From NCBI GenBank assembly GCA_051294375.1, contig JBJCIZ010001037.1, forward strand, positions 1 to 36,164: a stretch of 36,164 bases of DNA, given 5' to 3'. Below are positions 1-22,026 of this stretch, one piece after another. Positions within the stretch are counted from its first letter, which is position 1, and every line of letters begins with the position of its first letter. A program made the translations under genes and the position numbers. The notes beneath the pieces are model-generated. The model saw nothing but the letters and a program-made list of their open reading frames with translations. It did not search any database and was not told the origin of the DNA. Source of the stretch: Paraspadella gotoi. Taxonomy: Eukaryota > Animalia > Chaetognatha.

Positions 1-3000
1 CTCCCATCTGTTTCTATCCTTTACCACATTTCTAATGCTAGCTTCCTCTCACTCTCAAAAGTATAAAACAACGCTTAATACACCACGAAACGACTTTTTC
101 TCTGTAAAAGATCTAATAAAACTCTAAAAATAACAGAGAAAACGATTTTTTCACAATGTAAAAAAGAAATAAAACTTTAAAAAAAAACGGCCAAACGTTT
201 TTCCAATGTAAAAAGAGGTGTAAAAAACACCGAATAACACGACTTTTAACGTAAAGAAAGTTGATAAAAAACGTTAAATTACAGCGGCAGACGATATTTC
301 CAAAGAGATAACAACTTTAAAAACAAAGAAAACAGTTTTTCCAATGTAAAAAAGATAAAAAAATTTCTAAAACACCGCGAAAACGATATCTTTTCAAAGA
401 AAAAAAAATAAAAAACGTACTACTTCTAAAATACTCATCGGTCTGCTTAAAATACTGTGACGTGTTAATGCAGAGGCACAGATTATTTAAATATCTTTTT
501 ATCAAAAAGCAAACAATTTCCTCTCTTTATTATTTTATGTCTCCTTTCTCTCTCTCTTTTCTCTTTAATTCTTATTGTAGTTTCTCCACTCTCAATAGAT
601 TAAAAACGTTAAATACACCAGAAAAACAGACTTTTTCTCTGTAAAAAGATATGAAAACTTTAAACAACATCAGAAAACGCATTTTTCCAAGTTAAAAAGA
701 GAAATAAAAACTTTAAAAAAAACACGGCAAACGTTTTTGACCAATGTAAACAAGATTTAAAAAACACCTGATAAAACGACTTTTCTAAATAAAAAGTATA
801 AAAAACTTTACAATACACCGGCGAGACGATTATTTTTCCAAGAACAGCATAACCAACTTTAAAAACAAAAGAAATAAACGCTTTTTCCAATGCTAAAAAA
901 GAGATAAAAAATTTCTAAGAACACCGGAAAACGAATATTTCAAAGAAAAAAGAAATAAAAACGTTAAAATACATTGCTGCAAATACAGCAATCATCAGGG
1001 TGGTTACTAGAAAATAGATCCTAAAGCCGTTCAGTACAGTTTTAAATATCTTTTTATCAAAACAAACAAAATTTTCCCTCTCTTTTTATATTTTATGTCG
1101 TCCTTCCTTCTCTCTTTTCTCTTTAATTTTACTGTAGCTTCTCTCCACTCTCAAAAGATAAAAACGTTAAATACCCAGAAACAACACTTTTTCTTCTTAA
1201 AAAGATATGAAAAAACTTTAAAAAATAACAGAAAACGATCTTATTTTTCCAATGTAAAAAGACAATAAAAACTTTAAAAAAAAAAACCGCATAACGTTTT
1301 TTCTCCAATGTAAAAAGGAGTATAAAAAACACCGATAAACGACTTTTCTAATAAGATAAAAAGTGATAAAACAGTTCTAAATACAGCGGCCAGACGATAT
1401 TCAGAAGAGCAGATAACAACCTTTACAAAACAAAGAAAAACGCTTTTTCCAATGTAAAAAGAGATAAAAATTTCTAAAAACACCGCGAAAACATATTTCA
1501 AAGAAAAAAAGAGAATAAAAACGGGTTTAAATACTTCTGAAAATAACATCATCAGGTTGTTAAAATTGGCTGGCAGGACGTTATAAATATCTTTTTATTC
1601 AAAACAAACAAAATTTCCTCTCTTTTATTTTTATGTCATCCTTCCTCTTCTCTTTTCATCTTTAATTTTCATGTAGCTTTCTCTCGCACTCTCAAAAGAT
1701 AAAAAACGTTAAAATACACCATGAGAAACGACTTTTTCCTTGTAAAGAGATATGAAAACTTTAAAAATAACCAGTAAAACGAATTTTTTCCAATGTATAA
1801 AAACAATAAAAACTTTTTAAAAAAAACGGCAAACGTTTTTTCCAAATGTAAAAAGAGTTTAAAAACACCGAAATACGACCTTTTCTTAAAAGTAAAAAAG
1901 TATTTAAAAAATGTCTAAATTACACCGGCACCGACGATTATTTCCAAAGACGATAACAACTTAAAAACAAAGAAAACGCTTTTGTCCAATGTAAAAAAGA
2001 GATACAAAGACAATTTTCTAAAACACCGGAAAACGATATTTCAAGAAAAAAGACAATAAAAACGTTAATACTTCTGCAAGTAACATCATCGAGGTGTTAA
2101 AATTGGGTGGGACAGTTATGTGAAATATCTTTTTATATCAAACAAATACAAATTTCCTCTCTTTTATTTTTATGTTCCTTCTCTTCTCTCTTTTCTCTTT
2201 AATTTTATGTGTGCTTTCTCTCATCTCAATAAGTAAAACGTTAAATACACCAGAAAACGAACTTTTTCTTCTGTAAAAAGCAATTGAAAACTTTAAAAAT
2301 AACAGAAAACGATTTTTCAACTGTAAAAAGAAAAAAACTTAATTAAAAAAACGCGGCAACGTCTTTCGCAAGTAAAAAGAGATTAAAAAACACGACTAAA
2401 CGACCTTTTAGAAGTAAAAAGTAAATTAAAAAGTTAAAACACCGGCAGACAATTTCTCCAAAGCGATAACAACTTTAAAAACAAAGAAAAAACGCTTCTC
2501 ATGTAAAAAAGAATAAAAAAATCAAAAAACACCGGAAAACGATATTTTCAAAGGAAAAAAGAAATAAAAACGCTTCAAATACTTCTGCAAATAACATCAT
2601 CGAAGGTTGTTAAAATGGACCGTATGAGGACAGTTATTAAATAATCTTTTATGCAAAACAAAACAAATTCCCTCTTTATTTTATGTCCCTTCTCTCTCTC
2701 TTCTCTTTAATTTTTATGTAGCTATTCTCTCACTCTCAAAAGATAAAACTGCTTAAGATACACCAGAAAACGACTACTTTTCTCTGTAAAAAGATATGAA
2801 AACTTTAAAAAATAACAGAAAACGATTTTTTTTTCAATGTAGAAAAGAAATAAAAATACTTTAAAAAAAAACGGCAAACGCTTTTTCCAATTTAAAAAAT
2901 GATTAAAAAACATGCAATTAAAACGAGCTTTTCTAAACGTAAAAAGTGAATAAAAACTGTAACAATACAGCCTCGGGCAAACGATATTCCAAAGATGATA

Positions 3001-6000
3001 AAACTTTTAAAAACAAAGAAAAAACGCTTTATTTCCAAGTAAACAAGAGATAAAAAATTCTTAAAACACCGGAAAAACGATGTATTTTCAAGAAAAAAGA
3101 AAATAAAAACGTTAATACTTCTGCAAATAACATCAGTCGCAGGTTAGTTAAAATCTGGGTGAGGACGTTATTAAATATCTTCCTTTATTATAATAAATTC
3201 TCTCTCTTTTATTTAATGTCTCCTTTCTCTCTCTGCTTTCTCTTTAATTTTATGGTAGCTTTCTCTCACTCTCAAAAGATAAACACGTTAAATTACATCC
3301 AGAAAACGACTTTTTCTCTGTAAAAGACTAATGAAAACTTTAAAAAATAACAGAAAACGATTTTTTCCAATGTTAAAAAGAATTAAAAACTTTAAAAAAA
3401 AACGCCAAGACCGTATTCTCCAATGTAAAAAGAGAGTTAAAAAAACCCGTATAAACGACTTTTCTACAAGTAAAAATGAATAAAAACGTTAAATACCCCG
3501 GCAGACGATGCATTTCCAAAGCAGATAACAAACTTTAAAAACAAAGAAAAACGCTTTTTTCCAAGTTAAAAAAGAGAAAAAAATTTCTAAAACACCAGAA
3601 ACGATATTTTCAAAGCGAAAAAGAAATAAAAAACGTTACAATACTTCTGCAAATAAAATCATCGCAGGTTGTTAAAATTGCATACCTGGTGCAAGGACAG
3701 TTATTAAATATACTCTTTATCAAAACAAACAATTTCCTCTCTTTTATTTTTATGTCTCCCTTCTCTCTCTCTCTCTTTTCTTTAATTTTATGTAGCTTTC
3801 TCTCTCACTCTCAAAAATAATTATACCAGTCTAAACACCAGTAGAAATGTACTTTTCTCTGTTAAATAAATATGAATAACTTAAAAATAATCATGAAACA
3901 CGATTTCTTAATGAAAAAGAAATAAAAAACTTTAAAAAAAACGGCAAAACGGTTTTTTCCAATTGTTAAAAAAATTATAAAAAAACACCTGATAAACGAC
4001 TTTCTAAAAGTAAAAAAGTATAAAAACGTTAAATACAGCGGCAGACGATATTTCCAAAGATCCGAAAACCACTTTAAAAACAAAGAAAAACGGCTTTTTC
4101 CAATGTAAAAAGAAGATAAAAAATTTCTATAAAACACCGGGATAACGATCATTTTCAAAGAAAAAAAAATAAAGAACGCTAAATACTTCTGCAAATAAAC
4201 ATCATCAGAGCGTTGTTAAAATTGGGTGAGACATGTTACTTAAATATCTTTTTATCAAAACAAAACAATTTCCTCTCTTTTAATTTGATGCTCTCCTTCT
4301 CTCTCTCTTTTCTCTTTATATTTTACTGTAGCTTTCTCTTCACATCTAAAGATAAAAAACTTAAATACACCAGGAAAACGACTTTTTCTTCGCTAAAAAA
4401 TATGAAAAAACTTTAAAGAATAACAGGAAAAACGATTTTTTCCAATGTAAAAGAATAAAAACTTTATAAATAAAAAACGGGCAAAGTTTTTCCAATGTAA
4501 AAAGAGATTAACAAAACCACCGATAAACGACTTTCTAAAGTTAAAAAGTAATAAACAACGTTAAAATACACCGGCAGACGATATTTCCAAAGAAGATAAC
4601 AACACTTGTTAAAAACAAAAGAAAAACGCTTTTTCCAAATGTAGAAAAAGAAATACAACAAAAAATTTCTAAAACACCGGGAAAACGATATTTCAAACAA
4701 AAAGAAATAAAACGTTAAATACTTCTGCGCAATAACTATCATCGAAGGTTGTCTAAAACTTGGAGGGCAGGAACAGTTATTAAATATTCTTCTTATCAAA
4801 AACAAACAAATTTCCTCTTCTTTTTTATGTATTCTCAGTCTCCTTTCTCTCTTATTCTCTTTAATTTATGTAGCTTCTCTCACTCTCAAAGATAACAAAC
4901 GTGTTAAATACACACGACAAACGACTTTTTCTCTGTAAAAAGATATGAAACTTAAAAACATAAAGAAAACGATTTTTTCCAATGTAAAAAGGATAAAAAC
5001 TTTATAAAAAAAAACGGCAAAACGTTTTTCCAATGTAAAAAGAGTTAAAAAACACCGATAAACGACTTTTCTAAAGTAAAAAGTGAAGAAAAACGTTAAA
5101 TACAGCGGCAGACGATATTTCCAAAGCGGTAACAACTTTAAAACCAAAGAAAACGCTTGTTGCCAAGTTGTAAAAAGAAGATAAAAAATTTCTAAAAACA
5201 CCGGAAAACATTATTTCAAAGAAAAAAAAGAAATAAAAACGTTAAATCTTCTGCAATAACCATCATCGAGGTTGTTTAAATTGGTGCGGAGCGACAGTAT
5301 AAATATCTTTTAATCAAAAAAACAAATTTCCTCTCTTTTATTTTTATGTCTCCTTCTCTCTCTCTTTTCTCTTACTTTTATGTAGCTTTCTCTCACTCTC
5401 AAAAGATAAAAACGTTAAATAACAGGCCAGGAAACGACTTTTTCTCTGTAAAATATATTTGAAAACTTGAAACAATAACAGAGAAAACATTTTTTCAATG
5501 TAAAAAGAAATAAAAAACTTTTTAAAAAACGGCAAACTTTTTTTCCAATGTAAAAAAATAAAAAAACACCGGATAAACGACTTTTGCTAGAAGTAAAAAT
5601 AGTAATTATAAAACGTTAAATACCCGGGCAGACATTTTTCCAAGAGATAACAACGTGTAAAAACAAGCAAGAAAAACGCTTTTTTCCAATGTAAAAAGAG
5701 ATTAAAAAATTTCTAAAACAGCGCGCGAAAACGATATTTTCAAAAGAAACAAAGAAATAAAAACGGTTTAAAATACTGTCTGCAAATAACGATCGATCAA
5801 GGTGTTTAAAATTGGTGTGAGAGACAGTTATTAAATATCTTTTATCAAAACACAAACAAATCCTTTTCTTATTTTCTATGTCTCGCTTCTACCTCTCTCT
5901 TTTGCTCTTTAATTTTATGTAGCTTTCTCTCGCACTCTCAAAAGATAAAGAAGCGGCTTAAATACACCAGAAAAACGACCTTTTCTCTGGTTAAAAAGAT

Positions 6001-6752
6001 ATTGAAAAACTTTAACAAAAGATAACAAAAACGATTTTTTTCCAATGTAAAGAAATAAAAACTTTTAAAAAAACGGCAAACGTTTTTTCCAATGTAAAGA
6101 AGTTAAAAAAACACCGATAAATAAACGACTTTCTACAGTAAAAAGTAATAAAAATGTTAAATACACCGTCAGACGATATTCCAACGAGCATATACAACTT
6201 TAAATAAACAAGGAAAAAGCCTTTTTCCAAATGCTAAAAAGAGAGTAAAAAATCTCTTTAAAAACACGGGAAACATGATTTCAAAGAAAAAAGAAATAAA
6301 AAACGTTAAAATGACACTTTAGCCAATAACATCATCGAGGTTGTTTAAAATTGTGTGAGACGAGTTTATTAAATATCTTTTTATCAAAACACAAACAAAT
6401 TTCCTCTCTTTTATTTTTATGTCTCCTTCTCTCTCTCTTTTTCTCTTTAATTTTATGTTACTTTCTCTGCACTCTCAAAAGATAAAAAACGTTAAAATTA
6501 CACCAGAAAACGGACTTTTCTCTGTAAAAAAAGATATTGAAAACTTTAAAAAAATAACAGGAAAGAACGATTTTTTCCAATGTAAAAAGAAATAAAAAAC
6601 TTTAAAAAAAAACGGCAAACGTTTTTTACCAATGTAAAAGAGTTAAAAAACACGAATAAAGACTTTTCTAAAGTAAAAAGTGAATAAAAAACGTTAAAAT
6701 TACAGGCGGCAGACGACTCATTTCCAAAGAGATAAAACTTTAAAAACCAAAG
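1..6752. repeat. Tandem satellite array, ~510-555-bp unit, ~12.5 copies, AT-rich
   Basis: Marker GTAGCTTTCTCTCACTCTCAAAAGATAAAAACGTTAAATACACCAG recurs at about 39, 577, 1134, 1673, 2209, 2717, 3255, 3792, 4328, 4870, 5381, 5918 and 6457. Copies differ mostly by single-base indels. The array stops mid-unit at 6752. Confidence 0.97.
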
Positions 6753-7083
6753 CCAAGATTAGAGGCAATCACCCTATCACCAGGCTTTCTTTCCGCCGGC
6801 TCCCTCTTCCCCCTCTCAACTCCCCCCTCCTCCTCCTCCTCTCGTCCCTTCCTCCTCCCATCCCCTAGCGAGTGGACCGGGCTCTCCTCTCTCTCTGGAC
6901 GGCACTCACGGCGCCAAGGGCTACCAAGACCCGCGCGAATCCCTCTTTCGCTCTCTTCCTTTTTCCTTTGTAGTGTATTTGCTGTGGCCTATACCCCTTT
7001 TTATTATTACAATCTTACTTACCTCTTTTTACTTGGTTGAGAGGGTAGTCAGATCCTCTTTCTAGCCAGTTATTCTATCTTCA
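6753..7083 (+). repeat. 5' LTR of element 1
   Basis: CCAAGATTAGAGGC...GGACGGCACTCACGGCGCCAAGGGCTACCAAGACC...GCCAGTTATTCTATCTTCA is colinear with 27239-27564 and ends in CA. It could be 5'-truncated. Confidence 0.9.
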
Positions 7084-7086
7084 GAG

Positions 7087-7104
7087 TGCTCGCCAATCAG
7101 GCTC
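7087..7104 (+). promoter_or_regulatory. Possible degenerate primer-binding site
   Basis: TGCTCGCCAATCAGGCTC starts 3 nt after the LTR-terminal CA, the same spacing as the PBS of element 2. It lacks one G of the canonical TGG, in a noisy region. The tRNA was not identified. Confidence 0.35.
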
Positions 7105-7389
7105 TCCCCTAGGTTTAAACCTACCCCAGGATTAAGAGTCCCGTGCTTCCGACTTAAGTTAACCGGGCACGTTAAACCCACCCCAACCCACCCGAAACAT
7201 CAAATTTCTTCGTTTCTTTTCTAAGCTAACCTCATCTTAATGTTTTGTCTCTACCCTAAACTTTTTCTTACCTCGTCGCGCAAAAAAAAGATTTTTTTTT
7301 TTTCAACTCTAACCTAAATTTTCTAATTTTTTTTCTATCTCTCCTCGCGCAAACACACACACAACAAAAAAAACGATTTGTCAAAAACG

Positions 7390-7830
7390 AAAATTGCTAA
7401 AGTGTTAGAGTAAAATCTCATAATTTTTTCTTTTCAGGCACTTAATCCGCGGAAATTTAATAAACAGTCCGTAGAAAAATTGTAAAAGTGTAAAACTGCT
7501 AAAAGAGTATCTCATCATCTTTTCTTAGCACTAACGCGGAATTGTAAAAGTGGTAATAAATTTAAAGTGTAAAATTATAAAGTTTTAATCTCATCCTTTT
7601 TGTCAGCACTAATCCGGAAGTGTAAAAATTGCTAAAAAAATTGTAAAAGTGTTAAAATTATAAAGTATTAATCTCATCCTTTTTTCGCTACTAATCGGAA
7701 GTTGTTAAAAGTTGTATAAAAAACTTTTGGTTAAAGTGTAAAATTATAAGTATTTAATCTTAATCCCTTTTTTTCAGCAGCTAATCCGGGAAATTGTTAA
7801 AGAGTAAAGTGTTTCTCATGCGCATTTCCG
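7390..7830. repeat. Degenerate ~80-90-bp tandem repeat, ~5 copies, in the 5' leader
   Basis: ATCTCATCCTTTT...AGCACTAATCCGGAA..TGTAAAA recurs at about 7415, 7510, 7588, 7671 and 7757. Confidence 0.8.
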
Positions 7831-9319
7831 CGAAACGTGTAAAGAGTCAAGAGCGTAGTCTTAAGAGGACATGAAAATAAAAATAAAAATACGAAGTGAT
7901 AAGTAACAAAAAGTAACAAAGTAAACAAGTCAAATTTCAAAACTCGACTTTCCGAAAACTTTGTTCGGACGTCTATTATCTTATCACTCTCTCGCGTTTA
8001 TTCAACTTTTCACTTTGTTTCACTATCCCCTCGATTTGCGTCCTGCACTCTATCTCCTAATCTCATTAAGCCCAAATCTATTTTCACTCTAGTTTAAAGC
8101 TCATGTTTACATATTTACTATTCTATTTTAATAACTAACTAATACTTACCTTTCTCCTCAAATATTGATCCTAATCATCTATATTCTTTTTTTTTTTTAT
8201 TCTTTATTTGATTATTTAGTATTAATCTCGATTATTAAATTTTATTTAGTTTATTAAATTTATTTCGATTTTATTCTCTGTCCTTGACTTCCCTTTCTTT
8301 CAAAGATTCCATTTGGAATTACTCTCCACCTAATTTTCGACTTTATCTCTGATCTCTATTTCTCTATTTTATTCCTCCCTTCTTTTTCTACTCTCGTTTT
8401 TTCTAATCTCTCGGGTTTCGGTCTCCTTTTTATTATCTATCTTCTATCTTTTTTTCCTTCTTCGGGTATCGGGTTTCCTCTGTATTCTATCTTCCCTTTT
8501 TTTATTTCATCTCTATACTATCCTTTGATACTTCACTATTTTCGACTTAATCAGCTATTTCACCATTTTCGACATTTGAGAATCCACTATTTCGACTTAA
8601 TCCCGCTCTAACTCAGTTTTGGTTGATCCATTGTACTACTTCGCTGTGCCCTCTCCAATTTAACTCAATCTCAGCACAACCTAAACTCTCTTCTACTCTA
8701 TTTCTATTTCGATCTCCAAACTTTACTTCTATCTCTGTTTCTATTTAAATCTTCATCTCAATCTTAACTCTTCCATTCTATTCCTATTTCTCTCCGAGTT
8801 TATTTTTTAAAAAATATAATATATATATAATTTCAAGAACACGACTTAAATCTTAATTCTCCCCTTGGTTCACTCTCTACATCTTTGCTCTCTTTCTCGC
8901 TTTCATCTTTCTACATCTCTCTCTCCTTGACTTACCCTCTCCTCACCCCCTTTGTCAAGCTGAAATCCCCCTCACTCCCTCTCCCTTACTGACGGACTCT
9001 GCATTCCTCTCATCCCGCCTTTCACTTCTTCACTCCTTCATTTCTCTCCCCCCATAACCTTTACCGATATGACCCAGAGGGTACATTTCCATTTTCTCAC
9101 GTTCCCCCTCTTCATTCTTTGCCCGCATTGACCTGAGAGTCAGTCTTCGATCACACTATCTTACTACTCTTTCTCTTCCCCCTCTCATCTGTTCATGCTC
9201 TTCCCTCTCCTCATCCTCTCTACTCCTAAGAGCACAAGCTGCAAAGAGAGGAACCGTCGACCTCTGACCGAAAAACGCTCTACGCTGCCTCCTCGTGGTC
9301 CAAGCTTACTTTCCCTCTC

Positions 9320-9415
9320 CTCATTCTCTCTCTCTCTCTTCTGTCTTACCTCTCTCTCTTACTCTCCCTCTCTCTCTCTCTCTTAACTCTCTCTCCTCTC
9401 TTACTTCCCCTCTCC

Positions 9416-9465
<50 letters not shown>

Positions 9466-9570
9466 CTCTCTCTCCTCTCTCTCTCTCCTCTCTCTCTCCT
9501 CTCGCCCTCCCTCCACTCCTCGCTCCCTTTTCCTCTTCTTTCCCTCTTCTCCTCCCCCCCCTCTCGCGGC
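9320..9570. repeat. (CT)n microsatellite / polypyrimidine tract
   Basis: Directly visible CT runs. Confidence 0.95.
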
Positions 9571-9788
9571 CGATATAACCCCTAACGACTCTCGGTCCTC
9601 TCCCCCTCCCGCTCTTTTGTTACCCCCCTTCCAGTTTTATTACCCCTCCGCACAGCCAAAACCGATTCCTTGATTTATCCGAGCAGCTGACAAAGTTAGC
9701 CTAAAGAGTGACAGAAAAGTAATGACAATAACGGAGCAAAAGTAACTGGGTGAAGAAAAGGATTGAGAAAAAAATTTCAGCGACCGTG

Positions 9789-10017
9789 TAAAAAATAATT
9801 AAATTGTGGCTTCTTCCTTCCAAAAAAATATATATAACAAACAAACAAAACAAAACTTAAATTGAGATCTATTCCTTTTCCGTCTTGATCTTCTCTTATT
9901 CTAAAAAAATAATTAAATTGTGGCTTCTTCCTTCCAAAAAAAAATATATATAACAAACAAACAAAACGAAACTTAAATTGAGGTCTATTCCTTTTCCTTC
10001 TTGATCTTCTCTTATTC
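9789..10017. repeat. Near-perfect tandem duplication of ~113-116 bp
   Basis: TAAAAAATAATTAAATTGTGGCTTCTTCC...TTGATCTTCTCTTATTC occurs at 9789-9901 and 9902-10017. Confidence 0.92.
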
Positions 10018-10103
10018 TACGAATTTTTCTTTCGATCTCGCGAAACTTTCTTGCTCGTCTTCTCTCTCTCTTTCTCTTTTTTTTCTCATTTTCCTTGCCC
10101 GTT

Positions 10104-10373
10104 ATGTTTCTAGTAGACGATGAAATAAACGAAGATTGTTTGCGCCGCGCATTTTTCCCGCGTTTTACCGATCCGTCTTGCACGTTACAACATTGGTTGT
10201 TGCACTATAGCCGCTGTTCGTATTGCCGTGCCTGTACTTTCTGCACAATCTGCTCACTGGACGAAACCCACCCCACCCGTTTCTGCCCGACCCTTACCGA
10301 AACATTAGAGAAATTTAAAAATCTCAGAGTTGAATCCCCTACACCGTCGGAAGAATCTGAAACCTCGAGGTGA
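10104..10373 (+). CDS. 89-aa Cys/His-rich upstream ORF with a zinc knuckle (possible first exon of gag)
   Basis: ATG at 10104, TGA at 10371-10373. Contains HYSRCSYCRACTFCTICSLDETHPTRFCP; the last part has the C-X2-C-X5-H-X4-C spacing of the Gag knuckles. Confidence 0.6.
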   Translation: MFLVDDEINEDCLRRAFFPRFTDPSCTLQHWLLHYSRCSYCRACTFCTICSLDETHPTRFCPTLTETLEKFKNLRVESPTPSEESETSR

Positions 10374-10614
10374 ATCCATTTACAACAGAAACTTTAAATT
10401 TTCAAAAAAAAGAAAATTTGAATTTTCGAAACGACGACGCGTTTTCTTCCTTTTTATTTTTCGTCCTTTTTTTCGCCGCCGAACGATTCGTCGACGACGA
10501 ATCATCATCCTCCTCCTCTGAATCCTCCTCTCGTGAATTCCTCCTCCTCCTGAAACTCGTTCTCGTTCTCGCTTCTCTCACTTCAATTGGACTACCCCCC
10601 CCCATCTTCGACTC

Positions 10615-10654
10615 TTCTGTCTCTCTCTCTCCCCCTTATATTTTTTTTCATCTA

Positions 10655-10691
<37 letters not shown>

Positions 10692-10702
10692 TATCTTTCT
10701 CT

Positions 10703-10757
<55 letters not shown>

Positions 10758-10945
10758 CCTTATCTTTCTTCCCCTTTTCTCTCCTCTATTCTTTTCTCTC
10801 CTCGCTTTTACTCTCTCTATCGAATTTTTTTTTCTTTTTCTCTCCTCTATCCCTTTCTCTCTCTTCTCTCTCTCTCTTTCCTCTCCCTCTCTCCCTTATC
10901 TTTCTTCCCCTTTCTCTCCTTTATTCTTTTCTCTCCTCGCTTTTA
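10615..10945. repeat. (CT)n-rich tract
   Basis: Directly visible CT runs, followed by (CTTAY)n-like repeats to ~11210. Confidence 0.93.
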
Positions 10946-11314
10946 AACTACTTTAAACTTTAAGTACCCTTTCCCTTTTATTTCCCCTTCACCCACTTTA
11001 GCTTTAGCTCACTCTATCTTACTTATCTTATCTTATCTTATTTTACCTCCTTCCATTTTACTCCACTCTAATTTTTTCCGCTTTATTCTATCTTACCCTG
11101 CCTCACCTTACCTTACTTTACTTATCTTACCTTATCCTACCTTATTTCCACTCTACGTCACTTTAGTTTATTTCACCTTCACCTTAATTAAACTTACCTT
11201 ATCCACTTCCCCTTAAAATTACTTCTCTTTATTTCTCCCTGCCTTACTCACCCTTCTTTCTGAAGAACTAAATCCGACCTAATTTCCAACGTAAATACAT
11301 CAAAGGAAATCACG

Positions 11315-13534
11315 ATGGCAGGCAAGAGCGCTTCCTTGGAGGATCTAATGCAACATGAGGATGGTGCTGGTAGACTCTCTGCTAGGTCACGATCAAGAGA
11401 CTCTCTACAAAGCAGAACTGTGTCACTAAGGTCAAGATCCAGGGAAAGGAGTAGTGATAGAAAGAGATTTGAAGGACCCCAATTCATGGAACACAGAGAA
11501 GTGGTAAAGAGGTTTGAAACTGATGAATCAGATGACGAGGGGAACAAAAGCGATACCCCAGATGTTGAAGAACAATTTAGGGGAACACAAGACCAATTCA
11601 CAGTGTTCACACAGAGAATAGGTGATCTTGAAGATGAAAACAACACCCTTAAATCAGAAAACGACACCCTTCTGTCAGAAAAAGCCCAAACTCGCATAAA
11701 TATGGACACCCTTACATCGGAAAGAGACCAGACTGAACGCAAACTCCAGCATGCTGAAAGCGAGATTATAGGATACAGAGAGAAAAACACCGACCTCATA
11801 AGGGAAATCGCCCAGCTAAGAAATGCCCTGGAGGGACTAAAAACAAAAGAAACAACAAGGATAGCCTCTGAGGCTATGAAAGAGCTCAATCTAATTGACG
11901 ATGACCTTGATGAAAATTCTCAAAGGAGAACTTCACTACCCACTTCACAACACCCAGCAGCCCTCATCCCTCCTAAACTCCAAGAAGCTGCAAAACCCAA
12001 ACAAACAAAAAGGACAATCTCCAGCAGAGACGAACATCCAGCCAGTGCCCCAACATCCCCAAAAAGGCCAGAAAGTGCGACAGCATCACCACAAAGAAAG
12101 CGTACTGTTGAGGACCTTGACGAGGATCTACTGCTCCTCCGCCAGGAACTTTACAAACAAAGTGAAGCAAGAGAAAAGGAGAGAGAGGCCCGAGAAAGAG
12201 CAATGGAGCTACTGGAAATTGAAAGGAAGAAAAAGAGGGAGTATAAAGAAAGACTTCACAACCTCTCAGACATGATGAGTGGAATGACAGTAAGAAATAG
12301 AAGCAGTAGCCGCAGTGAAAGTGTAGCATCATCCAAGAATCGGTCAACAACAGGAAGCCACAAAGCGCTAATCTGCGATGAGGAGAACATTGAATCTGGG
12401 ATCTCAACACCGAGAGAAAATGGAGAAAATTCGAAAGTGAAAGGTAAACATTTCCCCAAACGCGATAAGTACACAGCCTTCAGCGAGTATTTTGCGGCTC
12501 TCAAAGAGAGTATAAGAAATTGCATTGGACAGGGTCACACCATGTCGCAGATTGCATGGGAGCTATACCTCCATGCACAGGACAGTAGCTATGGTGGTGA
12601 GTTCCTGCACCAGCTAAACCGATTAGGCCTAAGTGATAAAAAGAAAACAGTAGACGGAATACTTAAAGCCATAAAGATGTCAGATTTTGATCATCGATTT
12701 CTGAGCGCATGGGAGCGTTTTGCTCAGCTTAGTAAAACTGGATCTGAAGATGTAGCCGCCTGGATGAGACGCCTGGAGACAGCCTACGATGCGTGTGCCC
12801 ATGTCTTTGATGATGCCGAAGAGTTCAGATCCAGACGATCCCACGAAATTAAGAAACAATTCTTCAAAGGCGGGGATTTCCCAGAATGGATGGCAGCACA
12901 ACTTCGTCCTTTCCATGACCTTACTGAGCTAGTACTGAACTGCAGAACGCTTGTGACCAAAGAAAGGAACAATAAGCAAAGACAAACAACAAACAACACT
13001 GCTGCGCAGCAACCACAACAACAGCGACCTTTTCGATCCCGCAATCAGCAACAACGACCGCAACATTTCCAACCGCAGCAACATTTGCAACCGCAGCAAC
13101 AATTCCAACCGCAGCAACCGCAGCAGCCACTCCTGCCCCACACCCCACAACAATTCCAACCACAGCCCACCCAGCATCTGCAACCCCAAAGGCCAATCCA
13201 ACCACAACCACTCTTGCGGCAGCAACAACAACCACAGCATCAAGCACTTGCTGCAACAGTGGATCCATTTGTCCGGCCTGATGGATCAGTTTCATTTAGA
13301 CCAAAGAGAGCAGATCGAATCCCTGCACCACTCAATGCAGGAAGGATGCCACTTGATGGGGAACATGACCCAAACTTCAAAGGAAGAATGTGCCTACACT
13401 GCCGACAAATAAACAAACACCTATCAGGACACTGTGGATACCAAAATTTCTGCCTGCACTGCAATTTAGAAAATGAACACACCACTCCTCATTGTCCACT
13501 GAATCCACAACAACAACAACAAAACCAGATATGA
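11315..13534 (+). CDS. gag: Gag polyprotein, 739 aa
   Basis: N-terminal coiled coils; capsid-like motif FAQLSKTGSEDVAAWMRRLETAY; Q/P-rich tract; two knuckles CLHCRQINKHLSGHC and CLHCNLENEHTTPHC; lies directly upstream of pol. Confidence 0.92.
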   Translation: MAGKSASLEDLMQHEDGAGRLSARSRSRDSLQSRTVSLRSRSRERSSDRKRFEGPQFMEHREVVKRFETDESDDEGNKSDTPDVEEQFRGTQDQFTVFTQRIGDLEDENNTLKSENDTLLSEKAQTRINMDTLTSERDQTERKLQHAESEIIGYREKNTDLIREIAQLRNALEGLKTKETTRIASEAMKELNLIDDDLDENSQRRTSLPTSQHPAALIPPKLQEAAKPKQTKRTISSRDEHPASAPTSPKRPESATASPQRKRTVEDLDEDLLLLRQELYKQSEAREKEREARERAMELLEIERKKKREYKERLHNLSDMMSGMTVRNRSSSRSESVASSKNRSTTGSHKALICDEENIESGISTPRENGENSKVKGKHFPKRDKYTAFSEYFAALKESIRNCIGQGHTMSQIAWELYLHAQDSSYGGEFLHQLNRLGLSDKKKTVDGILKAIKMSDFDHRFLSAWERFAQLSKTGSEDVAAWMRRLETAYDACAHVFDDAEEFRSRRSHEIKKQFFKGGDFPEWMAAQLRPFHDLTELVLNCRTLVTKERNNKQRQTTNNTAAQQPQQQRPFRSRNQQQRPQHFQPQQHLQPQQQFQPQQPQQPLLPHTPQQFQPQPTQHLQPQRPIQPQPLLRQQQQPQHQALAATVDPFVRPDGSVSFRPKRADRIPAPLNAGRMPLDGEHDPNFKGRMCLHCRQINKHLSGHCGYQNFCLHCNLENEHTTPHCPLNPQQQQQNQI

Positions 13535-16500
13535 CAGGATACGACGCTCCCGGGCGAGGAACTACTGGAAACTCTCTGCATCTCCCTCACCTATGACCTG
13601 CCCCAATTGTTTCAAAATGGACCCACAGTGAAAAGCCTAATACTCTCCCATTTCAACAACCACCCCCACACTAACCCTGAACAGCAATACAAAAATGCAC
13701 TACTTGACCTCCCCGGTGGCGTCCTAATGGAATGTCTGGCCTCTGCCTTGGATGCCAGAATTGAGATTCTCCAAGAGAATCGCCTTGTATATAAATCTAA
13801 ATATGATGGAACTGATGAACTAACACTGGTATATAATAATGACCCACAATCACTCCTTTTCTCCCACATCAACTTTTCAACCCCACAAACCTTCCTTGAC
13901 AAACTAGCCACACCCCAGCCTATTGTACCTTTGATGCCTTTGCAATCTGCCCCTGTTCAGCCAATGATGACTCACACCTCTTTAGGTGCTACTGTAATAC
14001 CTTCCTCAACCTCTCCACACTCTCTGTCACCACATAGTGAATCTGACATCTCTAAACACACCAAAAAATCTGATATTGAAAATCTTCACCGCCTTGAAAA
14101 CCATGAAAACCATGTAAATTCAACGCTTCTCTCCCAAATCTCCCCATCAAATCTTACAACTGAAAATTTGCCAAAATGCTTTCGCCAATTGAATAATCTG
14201 AGACAAGAGACAAGAGACCTCCTTTTTCAAGCCATGGGACAGGGACCCACAACTGCTAAGGTGAAATCTATCCTTGATGATATCAAGGCAAAACAACAAA
14301 ATAAGAAAAGTACAACTCTTGAATGCATTCCTGAAAATGCAGCTGAGAGCCACCAGAGTGCACATGAACAATCCCTGGAGAATGAGACGGTGCCTAAATC
14401 AAACCCAACCACGACCAGGATCACAGATCAAGCTGCGCTTGTAGCATCAATAAACCATGACAAAGATGGCCGTTTTGGAGACAGGCTTCAAGACTACAAA
14501 ATCAAGGATCTTGTGGCCTTTTGGTTGCCTTCGTCCTACAATGAAGGAAACACAGTAAAACTGCAACAAATTCTTGATACAAAACAACAGAAATTTGGCC
14601 AACCCATGTATCTAGTTGGAATCTTTCCTAACAAAAGGGTGAGACCCATGACCATAGATACCGGGGCAACAACATCCATGATTAGCGAAACCATGGCCAA
14701 AGAACTGAACCTAACCTTCTTGAAACGTGACCCATGCAACATCCATACAGCAAATGGCCCAATAATCTCTGACAGAGTGGCAACATCGCTAGTAGACCTC
14801 ATCGTGGTTAAGGTCCGGATGGAATTCTTGGTCATTGACAATCCTAGCTATCCACATTCCTTCCTACTTGTGGGATCTTCCTTCCTCCGCTCCAACAACT
14901 TTATGCTAGACCAGGATTTCCTGACCCTCTCGGAATCAATCAAAATACCCTTAATGGCCGGCCTAAACAATGCCCAAAAACACATTGATATGATCCAGAG
15001 AGATTACATCTCGGTAGCTGGAGAGGGCCTTCGAATGTCAGGAAATAGATCAATCCCACCAAAGAAAAATATCACTATCAGCGTCCGTCTGGATGAAGCA
15101 AGTAGCAAAAAACATGCTGGGCTCTGCATCCACTTTGAGAATGGCATAAGGAACATGATTGGAGTCCACGCACTGGACATGCTAATCTCCAAAGATCACG
15201 ATTATCTACGAAACCCAGTTAATTTGGTTGTCCAAAATCGCACAGACAAAGAAGTGGTGATAAAGGATGGCACTTACCTAGGAACCTTAAGAACTGTTGT
15301 GGATGAACAGCTGAAAACAGAACTCCAACACTGCGCATCAGCACAAGTGTCAGCCCTGGTCACCAAATCAAAACATGGCAGAATTGCCGAAGCATGGAAC
15401 AATCTCGCCCATGAATCACAAAAGCACACTTGCTTCATTGGGCGATCAACGGATGACAAGGACCTGGAAGAAGGCGAAATACTTGATGATCTGGAGGATG
15501 GTGAAATTGAGGACTCCCAAGAAGAACATATTCCTGATGACGACATGGATTTAGGCGTAGAGGTCCCAATATGGCTGTCTGACAGACTGGATGAGATTGA
15601 CAGGGAAGATAGAGCAAACAAACCAATCGCTTCCAAAGAGACATCAATAATTGAGCGAAATGACAAGCCAAAACATGAAATTGATGCTGCAATCACAAAG
15701 GTTCAGCGTGACATGGAAAAATACTGGGACCAAAAAGGAAAAGAAAGCCTGCTAGAGAAAGTGGTCATTGGAAAAAGGCTGACGGATGAGCAAAGGCGCC
15801 GCTGTGAGGACCTAACTTGGGAGTATAGATGCATATTTGCTACTAACTTCCAACACGCTGAAGCAGGCATACGTGACTATGCAGTGGACATGGCTTATGA
15901 TCCTGATAAGGTTGTTGCAGCAAATCCACGACCCACTGGTGTCTTTCAAAAACAACTGCTCTCCCGCTATATTGATATACTACTGAGAGCAAATATCCTT
16001 GAGCCATCAAAATACTCTTCTGTCGCCAATGCCTTCGTGATTGAGAAAAAGAGCTGCAAGATTAGATCAATTGAGCAGTTATCTAATGCTTCAGATGAAG
16101 AAATCTCAGCAAACTTCCGCCTTGTAGCAGATCAATCACACCTGGGAAAAGCCATGAAACCTTTCTCAAGCTTCCTCATCACCATGCGAGAGATGATGAC
16201 CTTTATGGAGGCAAATGCCTTCTATGTTACAGCTGATTTCTCAAACTTCTTCTACCAGATCCCATTGTCAACCACATGCAGAGCCATAACCTCCATCTAT
16301 GGTGGGGATAACAAGTCTTATAACTTTCAGAGAGTGACTATGGGGTCCCGGCCTGCCTTTTCAACGGCATCTCGAGTTGTGGAACTAACCTTCAGAGACT
16401 GTTTCTCCGTAAATGAATACTTAAGTTATGCAGATAATTTTTCCTTGAAAGCATCAAGCGTGGATGAGAGCTTGGATCAATATCAAACCTTTTTGGCTCG

Positions 16501-19500
16501 ATGCAAACACCAGAACCTCTTACTCAAACCTGGTGAGCTCTTTGTAGCCATGAAGGTTGATGACAACAATGGCGCATTTCAATTCTTGGGATTTGAATTC
16601 AGAGAAGGCAAAATCTTTCCTGGAAAGAAGAAACTTGCAGACTTTTCCTCACGCCCACTACCAACAAGCCGGAAAAAGGTGCTGCAACTTGCCCAATCCC
16701 TGAATTTCTTCCGCACCTTTAGCCCAAGATTTGCTAATGAACAAAAACAACTTTATGATGAACTGGAGCGCCAAAGGCTTTCTACAAGCAAATTTAAACT
16801 TACGCCCAAGATGATCCAACATCTCCGTGAACTACTCCATTTAGTGATGGACAGCAACGGGCTACACCTTCTAGTAAAGGATGATATCCACAAAAGTGTG
16901 TTTCTCCTCTTCACAGATGCATCAGAACTCAGCTATGGGGCAGCACTGTTTACACTTCGAGAGGGGAAACTACTATGCCTCTACTCCGTCTCTAAATCTT
17001 TCCCTCGCCCACAAATGAAATACCACATTAATAGGAAAGAACTGTTAGGATTGTACAACGCCATGCAGCAGATGTCACTGTTTTTGAGGTTTCGTAAATT
17101 CTTTGTGGTCACGGACTCTGCTTCTGTCCACAGTTGGGCACGCACGCAGATTTCATCTTTGCCCACATCTGTTCGCACACCCCTGCTCTACATGAGAGAG
17201 ACCTTCTGTTTCAGAACAATCCTTTGCAAGTCAGGGGATCAGCTGGCAGACCTCCTCACCAGATATGTCAAACCTGAAACATCATATGAGCAGGTTGAAG
17301 ATACTCTATTCAAGCTACACCAAGGCCCAAAACCTGACCATCACCTGGACGTTACAACCTTGAATGAAACCTGTGCTGCAGAAATCCAGGGACACAATCA
17401 AGCTTTTATGGAAAATACTACCAGTGACCATATTGAAGATGTTATCACCGACTCAGCCAGGTCAAGTGACCAGACCTGCTACGCAGCCCCTCATGGTCTT
17501 GAAGAATTTGATCTTCAGGAGTCTAGTGAAGAACTGACAACATTAGAGCAATCTGACAGTGATACAGACTCTGACAAAGAGATCACAGCTTTTGTTGCAC
17601 CAGCTACTAAACCTAAAAAGCATGGACAGGGTCAGAAGCGACCACCAAGTGACTCTGAAGATGAAACAAAAGCCAGAAGATATCCACGCCGCTGCATTAA
17701 GCCCCCAGAGCAACATACCAAACTTGAAGACTCAGATGCTGATGATGAGTCCCAAACAAAACAGCATCCACGCCGCTGCACTTTACCAAAGAAACAAGTA
17801 GTAAAAGTTGCTGAAAAACCAAAAGATGCAACAATCGTGGCTGAGGTATGCAATCGGGAGGGCCAAAGCTCTAAGACAAAAGTTGATAACCCACTAGAGA
17901 TCCAAGTCTCCAGAGTAGATGGAAAATCCTTTCAGATAAATCTTGATTCAAATGGGAAAGCCTACCTCTTGGCCCCAATAGAAATCAGCAAATCACACCA
18001 AGCTGAGCCAGAGATTGAAACACCCGGAAGACTGCTGGGGACACAAAACCAGGAAGGAGTCGCAACTGGTCCAGAGGATACAACTCCGAAATGGTCTGAT
18101 GCCACTCTCATATCTGTGGACACGAACCACACTCACAAAGAACCACAGGATATTGGTTGCACATGCAGAGTTAAACCAAACCCCAGCAGAAGAATCGCTC
18201 CAGATTCCTTAGAGATAATACAAGAAGGTAACCCCACTGACTTTGAACCAACAGAAAGCATCCTTGAAGATGCCATTGCAGCCGCGGGAGCAGAAACCAA
18301 CCCTTGTCCCAAAGCTGAAGACATCACATCAGAAATTGAAAGAGCTCAGCAACTATGCTCTGATACCCAAGCAATGGTTGAAGTGATAAGAATGAATGAA
18401 TTGCCGGAACAGCATGTGGCACGAACAAGATCCCCTTATCTCAATCATCTCATGGAAATAAGACCAAATCTCAAAATCACTGGTACATCGCTCTTCTTCT
18501 GCAAACTCAATGATGATGGCTCAATTACAAACACAGTCGTAGTCCCTCCCACTAAAGCCCAAGAACTGGTGATGAAAATACATTTGGACCTGGCTCATGT
18601 CAATCCCTCCCGTCTAAGATGCTCCATCTCTCAAAAATACTACATTCACAAGCTTCATGAGGCCTGCACAAGATGCTTCAAGACATGCGAGAACTGCCGT
18701 TTGGCACAAAAAGCCAAATTGTCTAAAGGCAGAAAAGTCCAAATTTTTGACTCAGCTGTAGCCAACACCTTTCATGCAGACCTGCTACAGCTGGAGGAGA
18801 TCCATTCCTACAAATACCTCCTCGTCCTTGTAGATCTGTGTTCAAGGTATGTGATAGCTGACGCTCTCAAAGCAAAAACGGCTGAATCAGTGGCTGAGTC
18901 CATTAAAAACATATGCTTTACCTACCAGCTATGCATTAACAGAATAGAGACAGACTTAGGCAAAGAATTCAGGAACAGCCTCATAGACTCTCTCAAGACA
19001 CAGCTTGGCTTTAGTTGTGTCAGCCTAAGACCCTCTCAGAAAAACTCAAACTTAGCAGAGAAGGTCAATGCTACGATTGTGGACCTTTTCCGACGTCTTC
19101 AACCAACAGGGGAACCCTGGACAAGGACCTGGAAAATGGTGATCAGAGCAATCAACATTGCGCCCATCAAATACTCTGATGACCTAACTGTCTCTCCTTT
19201 CAAATTGTTCTATGGTCGAGAGCCTACTCTCCCAAACCTACCTGATGTGACCACAACCCCACCTCATGGAACCGATAATGACTATCAATTTGAAAAACTA
19301 ATCCGCCAAGACGGGCTTCTCCAACGCGTCTGTCAACTCCGCTGCCTTGAGACTCCACCAAGTCTAATTCTACTTGGCACCGATGACTATGAGGTGGGCG
19401 AGAAAATCTTAGTCTGGCGAAATTTCGTTGAAAAGGAAAAGACAACGAAAGTGAAATCTTTAGAATTCAAACTCATGCCAAAATACGAAACTGCCTTAGT

Positions 19501-19597
19501 AACAAAGAAAAATGGTGACCAGTACCTAGTTCAACCAACGGATGGATCAAAACAAAGAGTTGTCCACAGAAGAACAATGAAGAAAATTAAACAGTAA
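13535..19597 (+). CDS. pol: Pol polyprotein (aspartic protease, RT, RNase H, integrase), in frame with gag
   Basis: Frame open from 13535. Protease TIDTGATTS (~14657). RT FRLVAD, ADFSNFFYQIPL, YADN (16427), FLGF. RNase H LFTDAS, RKELLG, VTDS, LADLLTR. Integrase H-X4-H...CENC, HADLL, ETDLG, LAEKVN, with a GPY/F-like C-terminal module (YEVGEKILV...VVHRRTMK). Confidence 0.97.
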   Translation, partial: QDTTLPGEELLETLCISLTYDLPQLFQNGPTVKSLILSHFNNHPHTNPEQQYKNALLDLPGGVLMECLASALDARIEILQENRLVYKSKYDGTDELTLVYNNDPQSLLFSHINFSTPQTFLDKLATPQPIVPLMPLQSAPVQPMMTHTSLGATVIPSSTSPHSLSPHSESDISKHTKKSDIENLHRLENHENHVNSTLLSQISPSNLTTENLPKCFRQLNNLRQETRDLLFQAMGQGPTTAKVKSILDDIKAKQQNKKSTTLECIPENAAESHQSAHEQSLENETVPKSNPTTTRITDQAALVASINHDKDGRFGDRLQDYKIKDLVAFWLPSSYNEGNTVKLQQILDTKQQKFGQPMYLVGIFPNKRVRPMTIDTGATTSMISETMAKELNLTFLKRDPCNIHTANGPIISDRVATSLVDLIVVKVRMEFLVIDNPSYPHSFLLVGSSFLRSNNFMLDQDFLTLSESIKIPLMAGLNNAQKHIDMIQRDYISVAGEGLRMSGNRSIPPKKNITISVRLDEASSKKHAGLCIHFENGIRNMIGVHALDMLISKDHDYLRNPVNLVVQNRTDKEVVIKDGTYLGTLRTVVDEQLKTELQHCASAQVSALVTKSKHGRIAEAWNNLAHESQKHTCFIGRSTDDKDLEEGEILDDLEDGEIEDSQEEHIPDDDMDLGVEVPIWLSDRLDEIDREDRANKPIASKETSIIERNDKPKHEIDAAITKVQRDMEKYWDQKGKESLLEKVVIGKRLTDEQRRRCEDLTWEYRCIFATNFQHAEAGIRDYAVDMAYDPDKVVAANPRPTGVFQKQLLSRYIDILLRANILEPSKYSSVANAFVIEKKSCKIRSIEQLSNASDEEISANFRLVADQSHLGKAMKPFSSFLITMREMMTFMEANAFYVTADFSNFFYQIPLSTTCRAITSIYGGDNKSYNFQRVTMGSRPAFSTASRVVELTFRDCFSVNEYLSYADNFSLKASSVDESLDQYQTFLARCKHQNLLLKPGELFVAMKVDDNNGAFQFLGFEFREGKIFPGKKKLADFSSRPLPTSRKKVLQLAQSLNFFRTFSPRFANEQKQLYDELERQRLSTSKFKLTPKMIQHLRELLHLVMDSNGLHLLVKDDIHKSVFLLFTDASELSYGAALFTLREGKLLCLYSVSKSFPRPQMKYHINRKELLGLYNAMQQMSLFLRFRKFFVVTDSASVHSWARTQISSLPTSVRTPLLYMRETFCFRTILCKSGDQLADLLTRYVKPETSYEQVEDTLFKLHQGPKPDHHLDVTTLNETCAAEIQGHNQAFMENTTSDHIEDVITDSARSSDQTCYAAPHGLEEFDLQESSEELTTLEQSDSDTDSDKEITAFVAPATKPKKHGQGQKRPPSDSEDETKARRYPRRCIKPPEQHTKLEDSDADDESQTKQHPRRCTLPKKQVVKVAEKPKDATIVAEVCNREGQSSKTKVDNPLEIQVSRVDGKSFQINLDSNGKAYLLAPIEISKSHQAEPEIETPGRLLGTQNQEGVATGPEDTTPKWSDATLISVDTNHTHKEPQDIGCTCRVKPNPSRRIAPDSLEIIQEGNPTDFEPTESILEDAIAAAGAETNPCPKAEDITSEIERAQQLCSDTQAMVEVIRMNELPEQHVARTRSPYLNHLMEIRPNLKITGTSLFFCKLNDDGSITNTVVVPPTKAQELVMKIHLDLAHVNPSRLRCSISQKYYIHKLHEACTRCFKTCENCRLAQKAKLSKGRKVQIFDSAVANTFHADLLQLEEIHSYKYLLVLVDLCSRYVIADALKAKTAESVAESIKNICFTYQLCINRIETDLGKEFRNSLIDSLKTQLGFSCVSLRPSQKNSNLAEKVNATIVDLFRRLQPTGEPWTRTWKMVIRAINIAPIKYSDDLTVSPFKLFYGREPTLPNLPDVTTTPPHGTDNDYQFEKLIRQDGLLQRVCQLRCLETPPSLILLGTDDYEVGEKILVWRNFVEKEKTTKVKSLEFKLMPKYETALVTKKNGDQYLVQPTDGSKQRVVHRRTMKKIKQ

Positions 19598-21009
19598 AAC
19601 ACCTCTTAAACCGCGACCACGCCCTGTCTCTACCCCCCCCCTCACAATTCCCGTGGTGCAGTGGATCCCCGTGATCTCCAAATCGCTGAAAACACGTCCC
19701 GCCATCTGGAAACGCTGGACTGAAGCTAAGCGGCGTGGATCTGCCCTACGGATGGACCCCACTCTCTTCCTACCCATTATCCCAACTGTGCGGTGGCTTT
19801 CCAGGCCCTGGACCCTGGTGTGGCCAAACCAGAACCAGTGGCGCCGCCGCGCCTCGGCTAGCCAAACCCTACCCTTTTCTCCTTTTTCTCCAGTGAAAAT
19901 GAAATGTAATAAAAATACATCAACTAAAGGTGCTTTGTCCGCCTCTTCAACTAAAGGTGCTTTATCCACACTATTACGTCATACACGCTCCAGGACCCTA
20001 AAAATTGGGCCAACATTTTATGCTCTTATTTTTTTTCTCGTTCTTTTAATCCTTATCTCTTTCCACTCCCCAAATTAGTATTGACTCAATGCGCGGGCCG
20101 CGGTATATCAAAGTATATTCTCTCTAGACATTTGATTATCCTTCTATCAATTGCTGTCGTGTTCTTTGGACAACTGTTAACCATCCTGTAAAAACTAGTT
20201 CTGGTCAAAACATTCCGATTTTAAGTAATAAATTCTTTATCCAGAAAACAGAAAAAAAATACAACAAAATCGACCACTGCTTTAATTTTTATTATCCTTT
20301 CTCTCCTTTCATCCTTTTCCCTCTCCACCTACATATTTTACCTTTGCCTTAACTTTTCTCCGTTTCTTTTATTCTATTTTTGTTCACCTTCCCTTTTTTT
20401 TTCTCTATCCTACTCTCCTTCCCTTTTTTTCCCTTCTTTACCTTTTTTTCCTTTTCTTTATTTTATTTTCTTCTTTACCTTTTCTTTTCCTTTATTTTCC
20501 TTTCTTTACCTTTTCCTCCTCCTTTCTTTTTTCCATCCTACTTTCCAGTTTTTAAACCTAATTTATTTTCACCACCCAACTCTGTACTGCTTATCGAAAT
20601 ATTCTTTACTAAAATATTATTCACAGGAAGCAGACTCGACTCATCGCCGAACTCATGTTTACCTCGCCGTCTTTACTCTCAGTCCAATTATAAGTGAAAA
20701 CCGAAATCTTTTTTTTCTCTTTTCTTTCATCTATCGAACTCACCTATTCTGTTTCAACTCTCAACTTTGTCACTCGTACTCCTTAATAAGTAATTTGATA
20801 GCCCTCGATTCTCCATCTGCTCAAAACAAATCACATCTATTACTATGACTCAAAATTCAAAACTTTCTTTTATTCACTTTGCAATACAAAAATTAATAAC
20901 ACAATATGATACTCTTTACAAACTACATAATAATTTTTTTTTCTCGTTGATATGATGCTCCTTATGCACTACTTATTCATTTTCGTTGTCACTGTCCAAA
21001 CTGTCCAAT

Positions 21010-21780: not shown

Positions 21781-22026
21781 ACTGGAAAAGCGGTAGCTAC
21801 GTAGGGCCTGTCCCTCCTCCCTAATGTGTTCCGGCGCACATGAGCGCCAAGATAAATCCGTGAAACACCATCGTCAGGCACCCGAACGAGGCCCTGGCCT
21901 TCAAGGACAACTGGGCTGCCAGGAACCCCATGCTGATGATGGTAGACAATGCCTGCAGAGCCTTGGCCATTTTCAACGGCAGTTTCGGGCCCAGTGAATC
22001 GAGCCCCAGGAACAGCCTCGTTCAAT
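21781..22026 (-). CDS. Antisense spliced gene, exon 2
   Basis: Acceptor CTTTTACAG and donor GTAAGT at 21780. The only open frame is the one required by the phase-2 end of exon 1. GC-richer island between CT tracts. Confidence 0.72.

Follow-up and report, generated by a model that had tools for sequence, protein, structure and literature searches.

Additional ORFs (aORFs) of LTR retrotransposons occur both upstream and downstream of gag-pol, according to passages of a review of these genes (PMC7264820); the word "zinc" is absent from that review. An accessory protein that shares peptide sequence with Gag, CERV, is encoded by Cer1, a Ty3/gypsy-type element of C. elegans, and passages of the report on it state that CERV is needed for the export of genomic RNA and has a Cys-rich loop proposed to bind RNA (PMC10309623). 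Accessory genes of LTR retroelements are few, and their origin is mostly unknown.

Upstream ORFs (uORFs) are found in the leader of Rous sarcoma virus, and the uORFs of retroviruses and pararetroviruses are short, with peptide sequences that are mostly irrelevant. The pararetroviruses have long leaders with uORFs (PMC5902531).

The locus analyzed here is an intact 89-codon ORF that lies upstream of gag on the sense strand of an LTR retroelement, at positions 10104-10373 (+ strand) of the window, that is, of the whole stretch of 36,164 nucleotides under analysis. Like the aORFs described in passages of PMC7264820, it is an additional sense-strand ORF located internally in an LTR element; it differs from them in being tiny (89 aa), in being placed upstream of gag, and in resembling the element's own Gag finger. 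The ORF thus fits the loose class of additional ORFs of LTR retrotransposons. CERV could serve as a working model for a small Gag-derived Cys-rich protein, the likeness being one of kind, with no sequence relation claimed. Unlike the ORF product, CERV has 517 aa and a C4-type Cys loop, comes from a five-exon spliced mRNA, and has most of its coding sequence downstream of pol (passages of PMC10309623). The leaders of retroviruses and plant pararetroviruses, known for ribosome shunting and reinitiation, are similar in that they are long and have several AUGs before the main ORF (PMC5902531), whereas their uORFs differ from the present ORF, which has 89 codons and a structured-looking predicted metal-binding motif.

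Like the nucleocapsid zf-CCHC fingers (PF00098), the knuckle motif of the ORF product has its ligands in the order Cys-Cys-His-Cys and a short loop, with an aromatic residue preceding the first Cys and a Pro following the last, and it is found in one element with two equally spaced Gag fingers. It differs from them in having five residues, not four, between the second Cys and the His, in giving no Pfam score, and in being free-standing in the leader, not at the Gag C-terminus. No Gag-finger-like leader ORF was described in the literature searched, which also contained no mention of CX2CX5HX4C, C-X2-C-X5-H-X4-C, or Cys-X2-Cys-X5-His-X4-Cys.

The Host Retroelement

The ORF belongs to a Ty3/gypsy-type LTR retroelement of ~20.8 kb that occupies about 6753-27567 of the window. 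All of its features discussed below are on the + strand. A direct repeat at 6753-7086 (start approximate) is 84% identical, over 345 columns, to its partner at 27240-27567. The first copy is followed by a PBS position at 7087-7102, and a polypurine tract (PPT), AAGAGAGGGG, lies at 27228-27237, just upstream of the second; flanked in this way by a PBS and a purine run, the direct repeats are therefore the 5′ and 3′ LTRs. The same polypurine run precedes LTR-matching contigs in two of the sequencing runs, X5 and X6. The family PBS, TGGCGCCCAATCAGGC, is of the tRNA-3′-end type and directly follows the LTR end in contigs of four of four runs. The 16 nt of the window differ from it at 4 positions, and a search for TGGCGCCCAATCAGGC gave no match at up to 3 mismatches. 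Taken together, the LTRs, PBS, and PPT put the ORF inside the element and outside gag-pol, which is the position of an aORF. No target-site duplication of the element was recognized.

The gag gene (11315-13534), which encodes two CX2CX5HX4C fingers (13391-13435 and 13451-13495) in a protein of 739 aa, is followed by pol (13535-19597), which lies in the frame of gag behind a single TGA and is open from 13535. We were able to assign five Pfam families along the pol product, namely PF13975, PF00078, PF17917, PF17921, and PF00665, with PR at residues 346-428, RT at 853-996, RNase H at 1098-1179, and the IN zinc-binding domain and core at 1646-1804. This PR-RT-RNase H-IN order is that of Ty3/gypsy-type elements. 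At the gag/pol junction (13532-13537), one TGA separates two ORFs of the same frame ((13535-11315) being a multiple of 3), and this single in-frame stop predicts that Gag-Pol is made by stop-codon readthrough, not by frameshifting. The pol product is long, with an unusual 1996 aa. Between RNase H and integrase lies a low-complexity, acidic insert with an 84-nt spaced direct repeat (17655-17780) that encodes a repeated ...PRRC... peptide.

Eleven relatives of Pol were found, the best two of which are 40% identical and lie on ENA contigs of at most 9.5 kb. A scan with the Pol alignment gave 154 pattern matches in metagenome contigs and 82 in viral contigs, none of which was confirmed. The lineage of the host element is poorly sampled, the nearest Pol being just 40% identical.

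Downstream of pol, an env-like ORF of 352 aa (24783-25841) encodes, as judged by eye, a hydrophobic N-terminus and a C-proximal hydrophobic stretch. Its codon-frame score, 0.188, is like that of gag-pol. The product has a weak, sub-threshold Pfam match to PF24664, Monjiviricetes_fusion, of the rhabdovirus type (E 0.0076; the score is 14.7 bits and the cut-off 27), and this ORF may be a captured env-like gene.

Although gag, pol, and the env-like ORF are all intact, the identity between the two LTRs is only 84%. This degree of LTR likeness may mean that the copy is recombinant or under LTR gene conversion. Similarly, with its 84% LTRs and deviant PBS, the copy in the window may be old or recombinant.

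The Leader and Its Upstream ORFs

Between the 5′ LTR and gag lies a leader of 4.2 kb (7087-11314) that is pyrimidine-rich and ATG-poor. Nine ATGs are present, against 19.0 +/- 3.5 in dinucleotide shuffles, and 9 or fewer were reached in 2 of 500 shuffles. The 3′ non-coding stretch (19598-24761), with 47 ATGs against 32.9 expected, is not depleted. The ATG-started frames of the leader have, in order, 25, 18, 11, 11, 20, 63, 7, 89, and 2 codons. The 89-codon ORF, which runs from an ATG to a TGA, is the longest of these and also the last, save for the nested 2-codon frame; seven further leader ATGs are found upstream of it. The 941 bases from its stop to the gag ATG contain 0 ATGs against 1.1 expected, a gap that is not significant alone. 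At the composition of the ORF, an open frame of 89 codons has a probability of 0.017.

The sequence-only reading of this DNA had described the ORF as a coding-like island in the leader, and the island proved real by G content, which is 19.6% in the ORF, 8.7% in the upstream leader, and 4.9% in the downstream leader, the flanks being pyrimidine-rich. When codon use was scored against gag-pol tables, the ORF's own frame gave 0.073 and the other two frames -0.122 and -0.204. This score is higher than that of every off-frame gag-pol window but is matched by 12 of 115 other leader windows, so it is not decisive. We rejected a structured-RNA reading of the island: the fold of the ORF is no better than that of shuffles (z-score +0.54; 140 of 200 shuffles matched or bettered it), and nothing in Rfam matched the island above threshold.

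Two tandem repeats of 114-116 bp, 96% identical to each other and each with a TATATATA run, are located at 9790-10019, about 90-300 bases upstream of the ORF. They could be an internal promoter or enhancer, a role that is putative. One contig of run X3 jumps 114 bases (9789 to 9904) and keeps a single repeat unit, which is a copy-number variation. In addition, an imperfect tandem array of roughly 100-bp units occupies 7390-7801 in the early leader. Contigs of X1 and X8 omit 282 bases of this array (7498 to 7781), a length variation between copies.

A Gag-Like Knuckle in the ORF Product

The ORF product contains 8 Cys and 3 His, all within residues 12-61, and Cys occurs at every third residue from C38 through C50. 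Eight or more Cys, the number in the ORF itself, were obtained in 57 of 5000 shuffles of the ORF. The knuckle consists of C47, C50, H56, and C61 (10242-10286), as established by motif scan, alignments, and shuffles. It has the zf-CCHC ligand order Cys, Cys, His, Cys inside ~15 residues. The knuckle and both Gag fingers have the form C-X2-C-X5-H-X4-C, so that they depart from the PF00098 spacing C-X2-C-X4-H-X4-C. The extra Cys/His ligands that had been noticed before the knuckle are present as residues 26-44, CTLQHWLLHYSRCSYCRAC; read from the translation, this cluster (C26, H30, H34, C38, C41, and C44; 10179-10235) is possibly a second metal site, the assignment being putative.

A six-frame scan of all 36,164 bases for C..C.{3,6}H.{3,5}C gave 3 matches, which are the two Gag fingers and the ORF knuckle; the X5 spacing is common to all three. 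Block-wise dinucleotide shuffling of the leader produced the X5 motif in 2 of 3000 trials, and shuffling of the ORF alone produced it in 5 of 20000. A gap-free alignment pairs residues 46-62 of the ORF product (FCTICSLDETHPTRFCP) with Gag residues 712-728 (FCLHCNLENEHTTPHCP), 8 of 17 positions being identical; the 17-residue match claimed from the letters alone, X5 spacing included, was therefore correct. When the ORF product was aligned with Gag, the Smith-Waterman score was 55, compared with 31.2 +/- 4.4 for composition-preserving shuffles (n = 2000), 1 of which reached it.

The resemblance extends beyond the ligands. With these left out, 4 of 13 positions are identical between the ORF knuckle and finger 2, a number reached in 239 of 20000 random draws, and the BLOSUM62 score at the non-ligand positions is 16, reached in 37 of 20000. 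The same score is 18 for finger 1 against finger 2 and -18 for the ORF knuckle against finger 1. The knuckle of the ORF thus resembles Gag finger 2 specifically, and not finger 1. In a single BLASTP comparison of the ORF product with Gag (E = 0.002; 9 of 25 identical), the match reaches upstream of the knuckle: there is an equal-length linker of five residues ending in Phe and, before it, a Cys that corresponds to the last Cys of finger 1. This upstream reach suggests that more than one finger was copied. With tblastn of the ORF product against the window in six frames, the best non-self match is Gag finger 2 (E = 0.049).

At the DNA level, the ORF knuckle and finger 2 share 27 of 51 nt. Identity is concentrated in the ligand codons, where 11 of 12 nt agree, whereas the remaining codons agree at 16 of 39 (Fisher p = 0.0025). 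The latter value is barely above the 27% chance identity (p = 0.04), that is, near saturation. The neutral retention of all four ligands at the observed divergence has a probability of ~1e-4, a figure that presupposes homology and is biased, since it was through the ligands that the alignment was found. The tblastn searches of Gag and Pol against the leader revealed no remnant other than the knuckle. A decayed gag copy around the ORF was thereby ruled out, the knuckle being the sole match of Gag or Pol in the leader.

The ORF had previously been proposed to contain a duplicated nucleocapsid finger reused as a small RNA-binding accessory protein, a role that is putative. In favor of the duplication, the match to finger 2 is specific, better than chance, and accompanied by the linker and the preceding Cys; against it are the near-saturated DNA and the absence of flanking remnants in the leader. 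We consider the descent of the ORF from the nucleocapsid module to be moderately supported by these comparisons. The small ORF with its Gag-like knuckle is a real and unusual feature, with a putative function.

An AlphaFold2 single-sequence model of the ORF product (mean pLDDT 45.5) was unusable, with no knuckle visible.

Searches of Sequence and Profile Collections

A word-index search of proteins of 48-156 aa gave no homologue of the ORF product. With phmmer against 1.84 billion representative proteins, only one match was obtained (P0020), and we rejected it as spurious: the protein is Cys-free and has 13 tandem repeats matching residues 14-43, so that the score is summed over repeats. Scans with the peptide gave 258 pattern matches in metagenome contigs and 8 in viral contigs, and none was confirmed. 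Similarly, a search with the C-terminal half of Gag, in which 7983 candidates were scored, gave none at E <= 0.001. Only an irrelevant match (E = 1.1) was found when the ORF product was compared with PDB sequences.

The profile search that had been suggested as a check on the zinc-knuckle proposal did not bear it out, because no Pfam family matched the ORF product at E up to 1, or its Cys-rich part at E up to 10. The element's own Gag fingers also gave no match to the Pfam zf-CCHC family. The lack of a Pfam zinc-knuckle match for the ORF and the Gag fingers fits their deviant X5 spacing, and this knuckle type, with five residues before the His, is missed by current profile libraries. In the protein atlas, the ORF product and the Gag finger region lie near the same zf-CCHC_5/zf-CCHC cluster, at 0.86 each; scores of 0.86-0.87 fall below the lead line of 0.9 and make this a weak lead only.

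Variation between Contigs

Eight DNA runs from two studies of one organism cover the window stretch. A contig of X1 (10096-10530) carries 6 substitutions and a 2-nt deletion, all at 10403-10497, with 0 changes in the ORF. A contig of X5 (9954-10530) carries the changes of X1 plus 10357 C>T, which gives S85F. This non-synonymous substitution is the only change seen inside the ORF among the near-identical strain contigs. X1 and X5 have one haplotype in common and therefore count as one comparison. Seven events over 435 bases that all fall in the last 128 have a probability of (128/435)^7, or ~2e-4, by hand arithmetic and assuming an even spread. Other parts of the leader are equally invariant, with 0 changes at 9954-10103 in X5 and 0 at 10894-11205 in X1, so the low variation is not specific to the ORF. 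Among the matches listed, there was no diverged copy of the ORF at a likeness of 80% or above.

The difference between the window and run contigs is about 0.07-0.3% in gag-pol, where the contigs of four other samples were compared, and about 3.6-3.7% in a leader piece (8734-9193) and the LTR. Two of the 13 gag-pol variant sites listed (42 more exist) share pol codon 1224; the remaining 11 comprise 7 synonymous and 4 non-synonymous sites. The intact gag, pol, and env-like ORF, together with the mostly synonymous variants listed, indicate a lineage under selection. Codon 1224 of pol (17276-17278) is located between RNase H and integrase; its two changes read as a stop in X1 and X5, and the codon is open in the window, X6, and X8.

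One X1 contig contains a joint from 7387 to 10389 that would delete the ORF. We discounted it, as its shorter side has 21 letters and 26 unrelated letters stand between the two sides, at an A-rich repeat. Four short pieces from run X9, which is RNA by guess, matched repeats at low likeness and none lay on the ORF, making this run uninformative on expression.

Origin and Possible Function of the ORF

We tentatively favor the reading that this small ORF with a zinc knuckle derives from Gag and has, or once had, a function. It likely originated as a partial duplicate of the element's own nucleocapsid module, comprising the end of finger 1, the linker, and finger 2. If the two are homologous, the retention of four ligands, their exact spacing, and an 89-codon frame amid near-saturated codons argues for selection, now or in the past. 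Translation of the ORF from the genomic RNA would precede that of Gag and would start, by scanning, at the last upstream AUG (G at -3); ribosomes would then get to gag by leaky scanning, by shunting, or by reinitiation after crossing the 941 bases that lack an ATG. At 89 codons, the ORF is longer than suits efficient reinitiation, as reinitiation-competent uORFs are typically under about 30 codons. The product, a small Cys/His-rich protein, is predicted to bind zinc and nucleic acid and might act in the packaging, chaperoning, or export of the element's RNA.

The main competing explanation, which we regard as somewhat unlikely, is that a fragment from the 3′ end of gag entered the leader through template switching or recombination and now persists as a decaying, non-functional relic, with its frame open by luck and its peptide inert. 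Such a relic would be expected to show what is seen in several respects: no homologue was found in the collections searched, the DNA similarity approaches saturation, codon use gives an ambiguous score, the sole substitution seen in the ORF is non-synonymous, and the copy in the window has a deviant PBS and LTRs that have diverged from each other. However, neutral decay to the observed divergence would rarely preserve all four ligands (about 1e-4), their exact spacing, and a frame that is open for 89 codons (0.017), no other Gag or Pol remnant flanks the ORF, and the gag, pol, and env-like ORF of the same copy are intact in a lineage under selection. It is very improbable that the motif and the similarity are mere coincidences in a Cys-codon-rich patch of the leader. 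The motif appeared in only 2 of 3000 shuffled leaders, the alignment score was reached by 1 of 2000 shuffles and the non-ligand score by 37 of 20000 draws, and the unusual spacing is identical in both Gag fingers; being so rare and so finger-2-like, the motif is hard to attribute to chance, even though the match is short (17-25 aa), its tblastn E-value against the whole window is only 0.049, and the identity of the non-ligand codons has p = 0.04.

We consider both of the two other explanations improbable. The ORF could be the 5′ exon of a spliced product, in which the GT over its stop codon is the donor. The exon would then be fused in frame either with Gag, through an acceptor AG at 11264-11265, or with an ORF farther downstream, for example the env-like gene. 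A candidate 5′ splice site, AG/GTGAAT (cut after AG), read by eye, does overlap the stop codon at 10368-10375, the next 0.9 kb is a pyrimidine-rich tract ending in AG, and by hand arithmetic a junction from 10369 to 11266 leaves the frame open into the gag ATG. Against this, the right phase occurs by chance in 1 of 3 cases, only one AG is eligible, and the acceptor is AAG, which is a weak type of splice acceptor. The ATG-free stretch that follows the ORF suits a scanned leader at least equally well (0 ATGs against 1.1 expected, which is not significant). A precedent is the CERV protein of Cer1, a spliced accessory product made partly of gag exons, according to passages of PMC10309623. Alternatively, the ORF could be a purely regulatory uORF that is translated only to throttle or time Gag synthesis, its peptide sequence being irrelevant. 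A Gag-like knuckle and 8 Cys would be unexpected in such a peptide, and typical regulatory uORFs are far shorter than its 89 codons; this length also exceeds the ~30-codon size for reinitiation. The position would be suitable, since this is the last upstream ATG of an ATG-depleted leader, with none before gag, and long viral leaders with uORFs are a known theme (PMC5902531).

Within the reading of a functional Gag-derived ORF, a more specific version may be considered, although we judge it unlikely as it stands. Here, the ORF would encode a free-standing "mini-nucleocapsid" that split off from Gag, with the Gag-derived CCHC knuckle and the second Cys/His cluster in a leader cistron of its own, translated before Gag and acting in trans on the element's RNA. 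Such a protein may chaperone, package, or export this RNA, or it may be a switch that senses zinc or RNA and thereby controls the number of ribosomes arriving at gag. If the leader does encode a peptide made from the element's own nucleocapsid finger, the internal duplication of an RNA-binding module would be one route to new trans-acting retroelement factors, and a leader-encoded peptide would couple the synthesis of the factor to the translation of Gag. If the ORF is unconserved, it would be a curiosity of one copy.

Sequences Flanking the Element

Positions 1-6750 of the window are occupied by an AT-rich satellite with ~535 bp per unit, which ends exactly at the start of the 5′ LTR. Contigs of X5 and X8 go on with satellite at 6750-6752 and diverge from the window there. 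On the other side of the element, a cluster of ~150-300-bp direct repeats with 72-86% identity (28579-29373) lies between it and a second retroelement (30336-36164). The latter belongs to another family and is broken into several frames, which include a gag-like ORF that lacks knuckles. Pfam matches to an aspartyl protease (PF13975, E 5.8e-07) and to part of an RNase H (PF17917, E 9e-05) were also identified in it.
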